Origin: a virus
Reading direction: 5' to 3' (one strand)
UHGV virus genome: UHGV-0035288
Length of the DNA stretch: 44,443 nt
The first letter of the stretch is position 1; the number at the start of each line of letters is the position of its first letter. Below are positions 4,124 to 44,035 of the stretch, piece after piece. A program made the position numbers and the translations under genes. The notes beneath the pieces were generated by a model that saw only the letters and a program-made list of their open reading frames with translations, made no database searches and was not told the origin of the DNA.

Positions 4124-4140
4124 AGCTGAATCCTCATAAA

Positions 4141-4169
4141 TTGGTTGCAATCCTGGTCGAGCGGTGCAA
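4141..4169 (+). promoter_or_regulatory. TTGGTTGCA motif plus degenerate second copy (CGGTGCAAT) upstream of lipoprotein moron
   Basis: TTGGTTGCA at 4141-4149, GGTGCAAT at 4162-4169, 35 nt upstream of ATG 4204. Confidence 0.4.
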
Positions 4170-4203
4170 TACTAAAACTCGACCAAATATAGGAGATGAT
4201 AAC

Positions 4204-4422
4204 ATGAAAACTTTAATTATGATTTGTGCGGTTCTTCTGTCCGGTTGTGCCGGTATGCCGTCTAAAATCTGCGACGCGACATATATGAATAGCGGTATGG
4301 AGTATTCTGTACCAGTGTTCGGTGTCGCCGACTTTAGCGGGCACAAAATGCTCAAGGCGGGGTATCCGTTCAACTTCCAGTATGTGTCGGTCGACCACTT
4401 CAAAAGCACCACCTGCAAATAA
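4204..4422 (+). CDS. small lipoprotein, candidate superinfection-exclusion protein (Cor/Llp-like)
   Basis: AGGAG SD then ATG 4204. MKTLIMICAVLLSGCAG is a signal peptide with lipobox LSGC; 72 aa. Opposite strand to flanking tail fiber genes, own terminator. Confidence 0.6.
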   Translation: MKTLIMICAVLLSGCAGMPSKICDATYMNSGMEYSVPVFGVADFSGHKMLKAGYPFNFQYVSVDHFKSTTCK

Positions 4423-15360: not shown

Positions 15361-15383
15361 AAAAAAGGGGCCGTGCTGGCCCC
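15361..15383 (-). terminator. rho-independent terminator after major tail protein gene
   Basis: GGGGCC-GTGCT-GGCCCC hairpin with T6 on minus strand, directly upstream of G RBS. Confidence 0.6.
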
Positions 15384-15413
15384 ATATTAACACCCGCTAT
15401 TTAAGCGACCAAA

Positions 15414-19429: not shown

Positions 19430-20131
19430 TTACTCGTCGCCCATTTTAGCGATGATTTCACCCGCCTGTTTCGTCAGGTCAGTGATGCCGAAGCTATGGC
19501 CCATCGTAATTTTAGACTTCACATCTTCGACGACTTGCGTCGGTTTGCTCGGCGCACCGCCGGCTGGCGTGCCTGCCAGGACGGATGCAAAATCGGCGTT
19601 ATTACGGAACTCTTTTTCAAGCTCTTCCATAGTCAGCGCGGACGGTTTGCCATCCTGCAAGACACGCACCTTCAAGCTGCCGTCTTCGCCGTCTTCCAGC
19701 GTCAGGCGGTCCATAACGTGGCGTTGCATGATGCCTGCATTCTTACCGAATAGCTTCGACGCCAGGTCTTTGGCAGCGCTGCCGATGGTTAGATCGTGGA
19801 TCTGCTTGCGGTAGGCTTCGATTTTTCCCGATGTGTCTGCTTCGTGTTTCGCAAACTTATCTTTCCAGGACTTGTCGATCGCTTCGAGGTCGCCATTTTT
19901 GCGCGCGGCGGCTTCCTCTTTCTCTTTCGCAAGGCGCTCGGCTTCGGCGCGACGTTCGGCTTCTGCTTTCTTCTCGCTAACCAGCTTCGCGTTATTGTCT
20001 TTCAGACCCTTAATCTCCGCCTGTACTTCTTCGGCGGTCATGAACGTTGATTTATACCCGTCACCATCGGCAACAAAAAGCGCCTTCATACCTTCCGGCA
20101 ACGCGTCATATTCTGCTTTAGTAAGTTTCAT
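19430..20131 (-). CDS. capsid scaffolding protein (coiled-coil)
   Basis: Start moved to ATG 20131 (AGGGGGAT SD). 233 aa with charged heptads (KKAEAERRAEAERLAKEKEE); directly upstream of capsid gene. Confidence 0.55.
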   Translation of the reverse strand: MKLTKAEYDALPEGMKALFVADGDGYKSTFMTAEEVQAEIKGLKDNNAKLVSEKKAEAERRAEAERLAKEKEEAAARKNGDLEAIDKSWKDKFAKHEADTSGKIEAYRKQIHDLTIGSAAKDLASKLFGKNAGIMQRHVMDRLTLEDGEDGSLKVRVLQDGKPSALTMEELEKEFRNNADFASVLAGTPAGGAPSKPTQVVEDVKSKITMGHSFGITDLTKQAGEIIAKMGDE

Positions 20132-20218: not shown

Positions 20219-20258
20219 CGCTTGCAATCCTTGTATTGGTTGCAATATATTGGTTGCA
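20219..20258 (+). promoter_or_regulatory. promoter region with two tandem TTGGTTGCA motifs upstream of moron
   Basis: TTGGTTGCA at 20236-20244 and 20250-20258; TTGCAA/TATATT hexamers; followed by CACCAACAACGAGGAC leader shared with region 30971-31000. Confidence 0.5.
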
Positions 20259-20280
20259 CACCAACAACGAGGACACAAAA

Positions 20281-21045
20281 ATGAGACTGACCAAAGGCAT
20301 TAAAAACCAGATTCTGGCTAACATTCTGCGCGACCACGAAATCGCTACCGAAGCCAAATCAATCATGACGGACTCGCGCGACCTGGCGTATGACATTACG
20401 TTGCACTGTATGCCGGTGGGCATTCATACGTTCGCCGAACTATTCGCACACATTGAAGCAATCAACGATGACCCGTCGCAGATGTACGGCGTCTGCGTAT
20501 ACACCAACAAGGCGACGTATAGTTATAACACCGACCGCCCCAAAGGTATTGGCAGCGTTTACGACGCCACTTTCGAAATCAACGCAGGCGGTAACGTTCG
20601 CACCTTGTCATTGAGCGGCGATGGGCACCGATACCGAGTACATCGCGGATACTGGGAGTATAAATACATGAATAAGCTATCTCCCGATCTCGGCGATATC
20701 GTACCGGGGTTCGAGGAAGTTATGTTGGCTTCGGTGTGTGAAGTGGACGAGGACGGAAAATCGCTTCCGATCTATAAGCCACGCTGCCGTGCTGATTTCC
20801 CGGCGGATCATGACTTCTGTAAGCGCTTGGACCGTAACGACCAGGCCCGCCGCGAATTGCGTGCGAAGTATGACGCATTCAAGTTGACCGTTACCGGTGT
20901 GCTTGACCTGCACAATACTGACAAGAAGCTGATTAAGGCATGGCCTGAAGTTGAGCAATTCATCCCTTACCCGGACAAGCCAAAATCCACGGCGGTGGCG
21001 CTGGATGTGAAAACTCTCAACGAGATTTGCGGTATTCCGCGCTAA
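20281..21045 (+). CDS. hypothetical protein encoded by a moron inside the structural module
   Basis: GAGGA SD then ATG 20281; 254 aa; opposite strand to all neighbours, own promoter motif and own terminator. Confidence 0.6.
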   Translation: MRLTKGIKNQILANILRDHEIATEAKSIMTDSRDLAYDITLHCMPVGIHTFAELFAHIEAINDDPSQMYGVCVYTNKATYSYNTDRPKGIGSVYDATFEINAGGNVRTLSLSGDGHRYRVHRGYWEYKYMNKLSPDLGDIVPGFEEVMLASVCEVDEDGKSLPIYKPRCRADFPADHDFCKRLDRNDQARRELRAKYDAFKLTVTGVLDLHNTDKKLIKAWPEVEQFIPYPDKPKSTAVALDVKTLNEICGIPR

Positions 21046-21046
21046 C

Positions 21047-21079
21047 GAAAAAGGGGCCATTACGGCCCCTTAATTATTT
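21047..21079. terminator. bidirectional terminator
   Basis: GGGGCC-ATTAC-GGCCCC hairpin (21053-21069) with A5 before and TTAATTATTT after; between convergent moron and spanin genes. Confidence 0.6.
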
Positions 21080-21290
21080 GCTGCAACTCCAGCACCTGCG
21101 CCCTTAGCTTCGCCCCGCATTCCATATTTTTCACGTCAATCATCAAATCCTCGTCGGGGTCTGCGGACGGGCTATCGAACTTGCACGGCGGTCGCAGTGC
21201 CGACTCCGTTAGCGGCATCAACGGCGCGTTGCTTGATCCGCACGCGCTCAGCATCAAAACTACAATCAGGGCGGTTAGGGCGCGTAACAT
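21060..21290 (-). CDS. Rz1: o-spanin (Rz1-like outer-membrane lipoprotein)
   Basis: ATG 21290 inside Rz-like gene in another frame; MLRALTALIVVLMLSACGSS signal with lipobox LSAC; Pro-rich mature part; 76 aa. Confidence 0.6.
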   Translation of the reverse strand: MLRALTALIVVLMLSACGSSNAPLMPLTESALRPPCKFDSPSADPDEDLMIDVKNMECGAKLRAQVLELQQIIKGP

Positions 21291-21501
21291 ATTTAACAAC
21301 CTCTTTCGTGATAGTCCGGTATTCCACGTCGCGGGCCTGTTCGGCCTGCACGGAGCGCTCCACAACTTTAGTTTGCTGCCGTTGGGCTTTGGCTTGCGCT
21401 TCTTGCGCCGCCTCCGCCACTACGCCAGCGCGATAGGAGTCACCTAGCCAGAATCCTACCGCCAGACCGATAACCAGTCCAATCGCTGCATATTTAATCA
21501 C
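21172..21501 (-). CDS. Rz: i-spanin (Rz-like)
   Basis: 109 aa; N-terminal transmembrane helix (MIKYAAIGLVIGLAVGFWL) then Ala/Gln/Glu-rich coiled coil; overlaps Rz1-like ORF. Confidence 0.6.
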   Translation of the reverse strand: MIKYAAIGLVIGLAVGFWLGDSYRAGVVAEAAQEAQAKAQRQQTKVVERSVQAEQARDVEYRTITKEVVKYVTRPNRPDCSFDAERVRIKQRAVDAANGVGTATAVQVR

Positions 21502-28040: not shown

Positions 28041-28532
28041 TTATGCTGCGTTACGTCCGATCTTCTCGGCAACGTCCCACTGCTTACCATCAAATAGCGC
28101 CTGCCTGCCGATTGCTCGACGGACTAACCCCTTCAGCACTTCGCCACCTTGCTTGCGGAACTGCGGCAGAGTAGCCCGTACCTTCGCCCAGTCGCCCAGT
28201 CGCACCGCATCGTCAAAGTCGTTGGCAATGTTGTCCGGTACGATCGGACCCGGACCGGCATTGATTACCAGGTCCACCAGCGCGTCGAATTGCGCCTGGT
28301 TAATGCTCGGATGCGCGTATTTGTTCACCCAGTCCTCGGCATACGCCACATCGCGCTTGAGCAGTTCCAGCGCTTCAGCACGGGTAATGCTTCTAGGCGG
28401 ATTAGTGCCGGTGTGCCCATAACCCCAGGTGTACAGGCCGCGGGCCTGCTCTTTCTTGGTCGCGAAATACGGCACCGGGCTGAAAGCCTCCCATGCTGCC
28501 GTAAATCGTAGACCGTTATCACTGAATCGCAT
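28041..28532 (-). CDS. endolysin (lysozyme-like muramidase)
   Basis: 163 aa; E...GYGHT-type lysozyme motif (YTWGYGHTG); start overlaps holin gene; no signal peptide. Confidence 0.7.
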   Translation of the reverse strand: MRFSDNGLRFTAAWEAFSPVPYFATKKEQARGLYTWGYGHTGTNPPRSITRAEALELLKRDVAYAEDWVNKYAHPSINQAQFDALVDLVINAGPGPIVPDNIANDFDDAVRLGDWAKVRATLPQFRKQGGEVLKGLVRRAIGRQALFDGKQWDVAEKIGRNAA

Positions 28533-30643: not shown

Positions 30644-30970
30644 TTATTTCGCAAGCTTGGCAAATAGTTCGCGCTGGGCTTTAATCCGGGCAACGTTTGT
30701 CACTGCCTTCTCGCCGATCCCGAAGCGATACGCCAGGCGCTCACGGGCAAATGCCAGCGCGTAGTCCTGGATAGCGTTCGCCAACGGCTGGATCTCTCCC
30801 ATAGTGTCGAAGCGGCGCTCAAGCATACAGGCGATGGCCTGCTGCGTGACGCGAACAACAGACCACGCTGCCGATAGTCTTTCGACCGCTTCCGCTCCTT
30901 CACCGGCGAACTCCGCCGCTTCTTGTGCCGCCGCCATAGCCATTGCGTAATTCCAGATAATCGCTTTCAT
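30644..30970 (-). CDS. hypothetical protein (first gene of leftward small-gene operon)
   Basis: 108 aa; GAGGA SD then ATG 30970; promoter motifs just upstream. Confidence 0.5.
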   Translation of the reverse strand: MKAIIWNYAMAMAAAQEAAEFAGEGAEAVERLSAAWSVVRVTQQAIACMLERRFDTMGEIQPLANAIQDYALAFARERLAYRFGIGEKAVTNVARIKAQRELFAKLAK

Positions 30971-33725: not shown

Positions 33726-34055
33726 TTACTTAGAAGTTTTATTATTGCGTACCCAGGAGCGCACTGTGCTCTGATTAATTCCGGTCAACTCGGCAATCAT
33801 CGCCCAGGATTTGCCCTCGGCGCGCAAACGGATAACCTGCTTTTTGTATTCTTCCATTTCTTCATTGTGCTTTTGCAGCTTGCTGGCTGCCGTACCGTTG
33901 AGCAATTCCAGCCTGGCGCGTAATTCTTTTTCTACACTGCGCAGGCGCTCTACCTCAAATAGCACCGCCCCAACGGCATCGGTATAAGCCCATGACCGGC
34001 TTGTTTCACTGCTAACAGTCTTCGTTAACATTTCGATTGCGTCGTCGATATTCAT
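33726..34055 (-). CDS. HTH DNA-binding regulator
   Basis: 109 aa; C-terminal helix-turn-helix (SWAMIAELTGINQSTVRSWV); GAGGG SD; first gene of leftward transcription from divergent control region. Confidence 0.55.
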   Translation of the reverse strand: MNIDDAIEMLTKTVSSETSRSWAYTDAVGAVLFEVERLRSVEKELRARLELLNGTAASKLQKHNEEMEEYKKQVIRLRAEGKSWAMIAELTGINQSTVRSWVRNNKTSK

Positions 34056-34231: not shown

Positions 34232-34260
34232 TTGACTCCCTTCTGCAACCAATCTAATAT
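34232..34260 (+). promoter_or_regulatory. strong sigma70-like early promoter (TTGACT-17-TAATAT)
   Basis: -35 TTGACT 34232-34237, 17-bp spacer containing GCAACCAAT, -10 TAATAT 34255-34260. Confidence 0.6.
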
Positions 34261-43390: not shown

Positions 43391-43710
43391 ATACTACATT
43401 CGAGGCCATTGATTTTTCGGTTGCAATGACTAACCAGTTATTCTCCTACGACAGCAAGACCGGCGTCATTCGCCTGAAGTCCACCGGATGTAAGATTGGC
43501 AACCTCAACACTGCCGATGGCGGCACGCGCATCGAATGCAACGGCAAGACGCTGTCTGGCGCACGCGTGGCGTGGATTATTGAGACTGGCAATACAATCC
43601 CTCCAGGCTATGCCGTAGTGTGCCGTCAACGCACACCAGGCCATTACGGCAACCGCATTAGTAACCTGTATCTGGTAGACGTTGCGCGCGACCCAAATTT
43701 TTATTCGTAA
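43387..43710 (+). CDS. HNH endonuclease
   Basis: 107 aa; ATGA coupling to MTase-like gene; ...CRQRTPGHYGNRISNLYLV matches His-Me finger H-N-SNL pattern of phage HNH proteins. Confidence 0.6.
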   Translation: MNTTFEAIDFSVAMTNQLFSYDSKTGVIRLKSTGCKIGNLNTADGGTRIECNGKTLSGARVAWIIETGNTIPPGYAVVCRQRTPGHYGNRISNLYLVDVARDPNFYS

Positions 43711-43715
43711 ATTGG

Positions 43716-43744
43716 TTGCATAATCATATTGGTTGCATTATATT
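43716..43744 (+). promoter_or_regulatory. sigma70-like promoter (TTGCAT-17-TATATT) built from two tandem ATTGGTTGCA motifs
   Basis: Motifs at 43712-43720 and 43729-43737; -35 at 43716-43721, -10 at 43739-43744. Confidence 0.55.
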
Positions 43745-43746
43745 GA

Positions 43747-43773
43747 GGGTGTCCGGTTGGGACGCCCTTTTTT
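43747..43773 (+). terminator. terminator-like hairpin immediately downstream of promoter
   Basis: GGGTGTCC-GGTT-GGACGCCC stem (one G-T wobble) followed by T6 (43768-43773). Confidence 0.5.
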
Positions 43774-43792
43774 AATACCTGGAGACAACACG

Positions 43793-44035
43793 ATGAGATC
43801 ATTATTTTTCGACTACGACGGCGACCTTCGATTTTGGGTGATACTCACCCTCATGTTTGCCGTTTGTATTTTCGTACCTACCGCGGCTATTTACTACTCG
43901 GAACGCTACGAATGCCGGACTGTGTACGCAGAGCAAACAGGTCGTAACACCCAATGGCGCTATGGTGTCTGCTGGGTTGAGATGGACGGCAAATTTATTC
44001 CTCGCGATGAGATTCGCACAACGGAGATTAAATAA
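43793..44035 (+). CDS. small membrane protein
   Basis: Track start 43733 precedes the promoter/terminator; ATG 43793 has GGAGA SD. 80 aa; hydrophobic helix FWVILTLMFAVCIFVPTAAIYY. Confidence 0.45.
   Translation: MRSLFFDYDGDLRFWVILTLMFAVCIFVPTAAIYYSERYECRTVYAEQTGRNTQWRYGVCWVEMDGKFIPRDEIRTTEIK

Follow-up and report, generated by a model that had tools for sequence, protein, structure and literature searches.

The plus-strand gene that lies among the head genes of phage genome UHGV-0035288, analysed here over its whole stretch of 44,443 nucleotides (referred to as the window), was identified as nmad5, which encodes a full-length member of the Nmad5 protein family. The arrangement of sequence signals around it supports a predicted autonomous one-gene transcription unit on the strand opposite to its surroundings. 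The explanation favoured, held with somewhat less than even confidence, is that nmad5 encodes a dispensable, non-structural early protein that would bind host or replication machinery, with a C-terminal surface that would interface with the membrane NTPase Tmn. The gene, its family and its phenotypes have already been published, and it is not a new system. A first-pass annotation of this DNA, made from the sequence alone, had portrayed the gene as an undescribed moron of unrecognisable nature with a possible role in defence. The autonomous, accessory and defence-related character of the cassette was borne out, while its description as unrecognisable, undescribed and sporadic was not, orthologues having been studied experimentally in 2025. 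The genomes of hundreds of phages and prophages, Shiga-toxin prophages among them, carry Nmad5 under the annotation of a nucleotide-modification protein, and its reinterpretation bears on the reading of the Tmn escape mutation and on the engineering of therapeutic Dhillonviruses.

Table 1. Positions of nmad5, its predicted signals and its flanking genes in the window
Feature	Position	Strand	Remarks
Head scaffolding gene	19430-20131	-	Flanks nmad5
Predicted sigma-70-type promoter	20222..20251	+	-35 TTGCAA 20222-20227, 18-nt spacer, -10 TATATT 20246-20251; consensus scan
Two tandem TATTGGTTGCA copies	20234-20244, 20248-20258	+	Overlap of the second copy with the -10 and with the predicted start of transcription
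Inverted repeat TTGGT-TGCAC-ACCAA in leader	20250..20264	+	Read from sequence
Ribosome-binding site GAGGA	20269..20273	+	7 nt before ATG; read from sequence
nmad5 CDS	20281..21045	+	254 aa plus stop; ATG 20281; Pfam PF18757, PHROG 1965
K216 codon, site of the published Tmn-escape change K216E	20926..20928	+	K216 inside HNTDKKLIKAWPEV
G+C-rich hairpin AAGGGGCC-ATTAC-GGCCCCTT	21051..21071	both	Between convergent nmad5 and o-spanin genes; terminator-like
o-spanin	21060-21290	-	Nested spanin pair flanking nmad5
i-spanin	21172-21501	-	Nested spanin pair flanking nmad5

Genomic location and coding capacity of nmad5

The genome was found to be that of a Dhillonvirus with SECphi4 as its nearest relative. 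Escherichia phage SECphi4 shares 97.9% identity with the 3.2-kb stretch around the gene, which is matched by 159 phage records, nearly all of them Dhillonviruses of Escherichia or Shigella. Between positions 2402 and 34055, all long ORFs were found on the minus strand with the exception of nmad5 and the Cor lipoprotein gene (4141-4422, plus strand), which agrees with the leftward block of 2.4-34 kb with two exceptions described in the first-pass annotation. An identical strand layout was seen in the annotation of the relative Zumzum. The spanin pair that flanks nmad5 (21060-21501, minus strand) sits within the head-gene block, at a distance of approximately 7 kb from the lysozyme and holin genes (28041-28532, minus strand).

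The start of the gene was fixed at the ATG of position 20281, rather than at an upstream TTG (20236), because the N-terminal residues MRLT are conserved across the family, and this ATG is also the one served by the ribosome-binding site of Table 1. Comparison with six relatives gave a dN/dS of approximately 0.11, indicative of purifying selection and thus of a functional protein. Together with the full-length match to the Pfam Nmad5 family described below, this argues that the ORF did not arise by chance and that the opposite-strand gene of 254 aa called at first pass is real. An antisense ORF (20677-21060, 127 aa) was dismissed, since both homology and codon-level selection favour the plus-strand frame. 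The encoded protein is 98.4% identical to its counterpart in SECphi4 (QJI52553).

Promoter motif, leader and terminator

Two tandem copies of the motif TATTGGTTGCA were identified together with the predicted sigma-70-type -35 and -10 elements upstream of nmad5, in accordance with the paired-motif promoter that had been proposed for the gene. When one mismatch was allowed, 11 sites were found in the window (positions 1190, 4139, 20234, 20248, 30437, 30992, 31023, 34244, 40768, 43710 and 43727) against 0.75 expected, a number reached in none of 100 shuffled sequences. At the sites inspected, the orientation of the motif matched that of the downstream gene. In paired copies the first provides a -35-like TTGCA, followed after 17 nt by the opening TATATT of the second, which forms the -10. 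This architecture (TTGCA, 17 nt, then TATATT or TATAGT) recurs at other sites of the motif, and tandem pairs are frequent. The motif stands before the primase-helicase operon (34244), before the minus-strand gene 30644-30970 (30992/31023) and before the Cor gene (4139), and a further copy lies in the replication block (40768). That nmad5 shares it with these sites suggests expression of an early type that depends on the host polymerase. The sites may be read as promoters of one family, used by the host polymerase to transcribe early and accessory genes, and the motif looks like a promoter or operator family of the phage's own for that polymerase. No description of the motif was found in the literature searched, nor did a search yield a transcriptome of any Dhillonvirus.

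Other sites of this motif have features of their own. At position 1190, an inverted copy stands back to back with the motif, suggesting divergent promoters. At 43710-43795 (plus strand), a terminator-like hairpin, GGGTGTCC...GGGACGCCC with TTTTTT (approximately 43747-43773), comes within approximately 10 nt after a paired-motif promoter and ahead of the next ATG at 43793; this arrangement of promoter then terminator could be an attenuator. The motif at 34244 is followed first by a gene (33726-34055, minus strand) for a 109-aa protein with matches to HTH_23 and Sigma70_r4_2 (E values of 2e-7 and 8e-7), labelled as a transposase in relatives. A candidate regulator, this helix-turn-helix protein could have the TATTGGTTGCA repeats as its binding sites.

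The leader of nmad5 contains an inverted repeat that is found as an identical module before the minus-strand gene at 30644-30970, the wider module TATTGGTTGCACACCAACA...GAGGAC...ATG having a near-verbatim second copy there. The repeat, which might act as an operator or as a 5' stem, is kept in relatives regardless of which cassette gene comes first.

Downstream of nmad5, the hairpin was called as a terminator on both strands, and its stability exceeded that of shuffled sequence (-19.2 kcal/mol, z -3.2). The minus strand has a good T tract (TTTTT), the plus strand a weak one (AATTATTT). Promoter, leader and hairpin were all kept in eight relatives (SECphi4, Pandora71, SM_S22, EC115, SM_A8, Zumzum, JL1 and Teewinot), the hairpin being retained even in those from which nmad5 has been deleted. 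With a predicted promoter and terminator of its own, separate from the flanking operon, the gene has the organisation of a moron. A search of the whole window against Rfam identified no RNA family.

Three hairpins of similar build (GGGGCC, 5-7 nt, GGCCCC, with flanking A and T runs) were noted at 2380-2396, 15367-15385 and 21053-21069, two of them at junctions of convergent genes, and these appear to represent a common design of bidirectional terminator. If the hairpin at 21051-21071 stops leftward transcripts, the downstream scaffold and capsid genes would need read-through or a promoter missed by the consensus scan.

Variation of the cassette among Dhillonviruses

Comparison among relatives showed that the promoter, leader and hairpin are shared, with the cargo between them being variable. 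In the window, SECphi4, SM_S22 and Pandora71, nmad5 is the only gene of the cassette. In EC115 (L003, 1887-2201), SM_A8 (L004, 1887-2201) and Zumzum, a 104-aa gene (PHROG 24635) precedes nmad5 to form a two-gene operon. This gene, common in Dhillonviruses between the shared promoter and nmad5, is absent from the window, and its product had no match in Pfam or PADLOC. WF5505 carries nmad5 along with a 184-aa gene (L023, 2462-3016), while in JLBYU27 (L024, 903-1463), and probably in Sodalis phage SO-1, a gene of approximately 186 aa takes the place of nmad5. Furthermore, nmad5 is internally deleted in nature in JL1 and Teewinot.

For the protein of approximately 186 aa, a sub-threshold likeness was found to the beta sliding clamp in its central domain (PF02767, E value of 5e-5, 24 bits where 27 is the threshold), along with a match to PHROG 947, "processivity factor" (3e-8). 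Such beta-clamp-like proteins of approximately 185 aa occur in 279 phage records, are widespread in small siphoviruses and bear labels that vary between "RusA-like resolvase" and "DNA pol III beta". Outside Dhillonvirus, this gene proved not to be a conserved neighbour of Nmad5: the beta-clamp-like genes of C130_2 and PEi21 are without an Nmad5 gene within 3.5 kb, and in VLCpiS11a the gene upstream of Nmad5 is unrelated.

Although the cargo varies, nmad5 was found at the identical position in about 150 of the 159 Dhillonvirus-type records, and it is therefore not a sporadic moron. The first-pass annotation had named, as signs against an accessory role, a virion structural match or a position conserved in all relatives together with an assembly phenotype. 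The position is widely shared, as stated, but an orthologue can be deleted with retention of viability (PMC11846954), natural deletions exist, and searches of homology and structure for a virion structural identity returned no structural match. Both the viable and the natural deletions support the conclusion that nmad5 is not a virion or assembly gene.

The second plus-strand gene of the leftward block encodes a Cor superinfection-exclusion lipoprotein (4141-4422; PHROG 1119, E value of 1e-27) and has the same promoter motif at 4139.

Protein family, conservation and predicted structure

The encoded protein was matched over residues 1-253 to positions 1-206 of the Pfam profile PF18757 (Nmad5, "nucleotide modification associated domain 5") with an E value of 2.6e-56 and 191.4 bits against a cutoff of 27, and to PHROG 1965, of unknown function (E value of 4e-58), so that the absence of any recognisable motif reported at first pass was mistaken. 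The family is small, with 84 representatives at an E value of 0.001 or below among 1.84 billion clustered proteins. Nearly all of these are shorter than 250 aa, and larger multidomain proteins are absent from among them.

Conservation is concentrated at both ends of the protein (R2-L3-T4, H177, T213, K215-K216-L217, W221-P222-E223, L246-N247 and G251-x-P253). The window protein has all signature residues of the family, namely the N-terminal R-L-T, H177, T213/K216/L217, W-P-E and L-N-x-x-x-G-x-P, whose conservation among 58 diverse members ranges from 76% to 98%, with R2 and L3 each found in 91%. The block that holds K216 is the family's most conserved, and the residue stands in the same context as in the orthologues, HNTDKKLIKAWP; it is invariant in 38 Dhillonvirus cluster representatives and is a lysine in 76% of the 58 diverse members. 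Among Dhillonviruses no change occurs in the last 14 residues, and codons 46-130 (20416-20670) are the most variable, with changes in 75-88% of columns. Such a variable middle with an invariant end would fit a variable recognition surface joined to a fixed functional end. The gene was also found to change faster than its neighbours, with a dN of 0.046 compared with 0.003-0.019 for the scaffold, head-morphogenesis and capsid genes, and with a DNA identity to most relatives of 80-90% compared with 90-95% for the surrounding 3.2 kb.

Structure prediction, which had been suggested as a check on the protein, was performed with AlphaFold2 using the 58 diverse homologues and yielded a confident model (pLDDT 84.4, pTM 0.79). 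In this model, three N-terminal helices are followed by a six-stranded beta region (79-128), mostly absent from short homologues, and by a long helix (178-209). The C-terminal part is predicted to comprise two short helices bearing the TxKKLIxxWPE block (T213, K216, L217 and W221-P222-E223), a linker of low confidence (233-240) and a short terminal helix with the LNxxLG(L/I)P tail. Comparison of the model with solved structures identified no fold match and no known enzyme fold, and sequence and profile searches of the PDB likewise gave no match. A new catalytic fold is possible on the basis of the model. No match was found to anti-phage defence systems with PADLOC, nor to structural protein families in the Pfam, PHROG and fold searches, and NCBIfam gave just a 12.8-bit match to a sigma factor, which was taken as noise.

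Published phenotypes of nmad5 and the relation to Tmn

Orthologues of the gene were studied by Yamashita et al. 2025 (Commun Biol 8:290; PMC11846954) in the Dhillonviruses SM_A8 and SM_S22, where the protein is named a DNA modification enzyme. On E. coli expressing Tmn, escape mutants were obtained with the substitution K216E in SM_A8 or K296E in SM_S22. Reversion of K216E restored sensitivity to Tmn and K216E alone conferred resistance, making the substitution both necessary and sufficient. Deletion of nmad5 gave viable phage with unchanged sensitivity to Tmn, and attempts to clone the gene failed owing to toxicity, which blocked a test of co-expression with Tmn (PMC11846954).

The window protein was found to be an orthologue of both, encoded at the same locus, with 87.8% amino-acid identity to the SM_A8 protein and 89.8% to that of SM_S22. 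Residue K216 is the same residue in SM_A8, and K296 of SM_S22 is the same position. The apparently longer SM_S22 protein of 334 aa (L016, 1141-2145; PP627283 CDS6) was rejected as an annotation artefact, its first 80 residues running antisense into the scaffold gene and its M81 beginning the sequence MRLT. The published difference between the two phages, described as a truncated N-terminus, is accordingly an artefact, because the SM_S22 start was over-extended by 80 codons.

Since K216E acts differently from deletion, the mutant protein must still do something. In T2 infection, the activator of Tmn is the early, replisome-associated protein RIIB, in which one residue separates binding from activation; single-residue changes in RIIB abolish the activation of Tmn, and rIIB nonsense mutations escape it (PMC13001434). 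A link of nmad5 to host interaction and defence, in line with the first-pass annotation, is supported by the toxicity on cloning and by the escape of K216E from Tmn, but a function of the wild-type protein as an anti-defence or exclusion factor is unsupported, deletion leaving sensitivity to Tmn as it was (PMC11846954).

The nucleotide-modification label and genomic context elsewhere

Iyer et al. 2013 reportedly based the name of the Nmad5 family on its association with nucleotide-modification genes. Pfam scans of the sizeable proteins of the window identified no homologue of aGPT-Pplase, 5-hmdU kinase (HMUDK) or thymidylate synthase, and none was present in an annotated relative. Products that were identified in these scans were a Dam methyltransferase, a PD-(D/E)XK/DUF2800 nuclease, an Enc34-type SSB and DNA polymerase A, along with an SNF2 helicase, a primase-helicase, a lysozyme and a helix-turn-helix protein.

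Genomic context was sampled in 11 lineages of Nmad5. In three of these (Yuavirus, cyanophage Pam3 and one metagenomic phage) the gene lies in a hypermodification cluster, always between aGPT-Pplase1 or HMUDK_hel and a thymidylate-synthase homologue. Eight of the 11 were assigned to early replication or recombination operons, with the stand-alone Dhillonvirus cassette counted among the eight. In Stx and HK542 lambdoids, Nmad5 is encoded in the pL operon directly after N; in a Guernseyvirinae phage of Klebsiella it heads an exonuclease-SSB-polymerase operon; in two metagenomic phages it is found amid early nuclease, helicase or polymerase genes; and in Bas95, a Serratia phage and Vibrio phages it is found amid small early genes. 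The common theme of these contexts would be early expression close to genes of DNA metabolism.

The absence of modification partners and of a recognisable enzyme fold, together with the presence of most homologues in early replication or recombination operons, suggests that the modification label was acquired through guilt by association and that the family comprises early proteins that interact with the host or the replisome. It is argued that the label "DNA modification enzyme" is unsupported for the window phage, and it is proposed that nmad5 takes no part in a DNA hypermodification pathway in this genome.

Interpretation and alternative explanations

In the favoured explanation, a promoter of the phage's repeated family, read by host RNA polymerase, would be followed by a ribosome-binding site, the coding sequence and a bidirectional hairpin, the whole cassette opposing late head-gene transcription. 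Nmad5 would be made early and would be a binding protein rather than an enzyme, its target being a conserved component of the machinery for DNA replication and nucleotide metabolism in host or phage; such binding would account for the toxicity in uninfected E. coli cells. Whether Tmn fires during infection would be decided at the conserved C-terminal surface, possibly through direct contact with Tmn. By analogy with the split between binding and activation in RIIB, the K216E protein could bind Tmn or the true trigger unproductively. Several observations weigh against this explanation. Residues R2, T4, H177, T213, K216, E223 and N247 could equally form the active site of a new fold, and the fixed slot in the thymidine hypermodification clusters of three lineages argues for some link with modified DNA. 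Moreover, the deletion phenotype indicates that Nmad5 is not simply the trigger of Tmn, and the published experiments used relatives of the window phage.

The target of this proposed binding may be suggested by the tail of the protein. Clamp-binding peptides follow the consensus QL[SD]LF or QLxLxL in a flexible terminus. The pattern [LIVMF]N..[LIVMCF]G[LIVM]P was found within the last 22 residues in 41 of the 58 diverse members, after the linker of low pLDDT, with N at the first position of the motif in 97% of sequences and the canonical Q in none. The tail consensus LNxxLG(L/I)P may be regarded as a lead, resembling clamp-binding hexapeptides such as QLxLxL in a non-canonical manner. In a speculative extension of the favoured explanation, to which only a slim chance is given, Nmad5 would not be a modification enzyme but a widespread early factor that docks via its conserved C-terminal patch and LNxxLGLP tail on a universally conserved replication hub, such as the beta sliding clamp, that Tmn-type sensors watch; K216E would be a dominant decoy that binds without activation, and the alternative beta-clamp-like cargo of the cassette would do an equivalent job.

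Among the other explanations, it is considered unlikely that Nmad5 is a dedicated anti-defence or restriction-alleviation protein, that is, an early inhibitor of an immune system other than Tmn, as Ral is after N in lambda. The autonomous cassette of early type, the lambdoid slot just downstream of N in the accessory part of pL, the faster evolution than the flanks (with the hypervariable middle at 46-130), the variable cargo of the locus and the dispensability of the gene in the laboratory (PMC11846954) are all what such a protein might be expected to show. Conservation of the termini across phages of Pseudomonas, Vibrio, cyanobacteria and enteric bacteria would be unusual for an inhibitor of one system, however, the dN/dS of 0.11 gives no overall positive selection, and the deletion has no reported phenotype.

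A role for Nmad5 as a DNA-modification enzyme or its obligatory cofactor, marking phage DNA with a mark that Tmn senses or is influenced by, appears distinctly improbable. It accords with the Pfam name, with the constant slot that the gene occupies in Yuavirus, Pam3 and the metagenomic phage, flanked by aGPT-Pplase1 and the thymidylate-synthase homologue, with several conserved polar residues and with the Dam-type methyltransferase encoded in the window. These points are countered by the absence from the window of the three partner enzymes of such pathways named above, by the failure to find an enzyme-like fold and by the location of most homologues outside modification clusters. In addition, the steps of the 5-NedU pathway of phage M6 were assigned to gp51-gp54 (a lysate mix also containing gp55), with Nmad5 unmentioned (PMC8989533). 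In the BASEL study, the deazaguanine-modified Queuovirinae, as regards resistance to restriction of types I and II, were contrasted with Drexlerviridae phages and with Dhillonviruses, the latter being less resistant (PMC8594841), and deletion of nmad5 leaves Tmn sensitivity unchanged (PMC11846954).

Of equally low probability is the explanation in which Nmad5 is itself the protein recognised by Tmn, like RIIB in T2, with K216E removing recognition. The same substitution arose in independent escape mutants of two phages and its reversion restores sensitivity (PMC11846954), and single-residue changes in the T2 trigger RIIB abolish activation (PMC13001434). The phage with deleted nmad5 nevertheless stays sensitive to Tmn (PMC11846954), and therefore either a second trigger exists and K216E is dominant, or the trigger is a protein other than Nmad5.

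A function in head assembly or in the virion is scarcely credible, being indicated by location only (between the scaffold and head-morphogenesis genes) and opposed by the opposite strand and own predicted promoter of the gene, the viable deletion (PMC11846954), the natural deletions in JL1 and Teewinot, the early operons that hold homologues elsewhere and the lack of a match to structural families.

Comparison with known systems

The closest known counterparts are the genes of SM_A8 (PP920553, CDS7) and SM_S22 (PP627283, CDS6), which represent one and the same gene as that of the window and share with it the locus, promoter, terminator and K216. SM_A8 differs in having an extra 104-aa gene between promoter and nmad5, which is not present in the window, SM_S22 or SECphi4. 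The Nmad5 proteins of Yuavirus (M6 and PAC5), Pam3 and the metagenomic phage share with the window protein the PF18757 domain, the MRLT-type start and the motifs T-x-K-L-I-x-V-W-P-E and LNxxLGLP. These cluster-associated proteins are of approximately 186-213 aa and are without most of the beta-sheet middle, in contrast to the 254 aa of the window protein, and their genes are co-directional with that of the DNA polymerase, whereas in the window the gene forms a cassette by itself, antisense to the head module around it.

Lambdoid Nmad5 (HK542c102; Stx1 and Stx2 prophages) is a full-length member of the family (E value of 3e-71) and resembles that of the window in belonging to an early unit driven by host polymerase, with accessory neighbours and no modification genes nearby. 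It differs in its length of 207 aa, in its identity of approximately 27% and in its location within the N-antiterminated pL operon of a temperate phage, compared with the stand-alone cassette of the window. The Cor moron of the window, as the other plus-strand gene of the block, shares the promoter motif with nmad5, but it encodes a lipoprotein with a known exclusion role and is unrelated to nmad5 in sequence. With T2 RIIB (bioRxiv 2026.03.01.708804) the likeness is a functional analogy only: in both proteins single-residue changes decide whether Tmn stops infection, but rIIB nonsense mutations escape Tmn and deletion of nmad5 does not.
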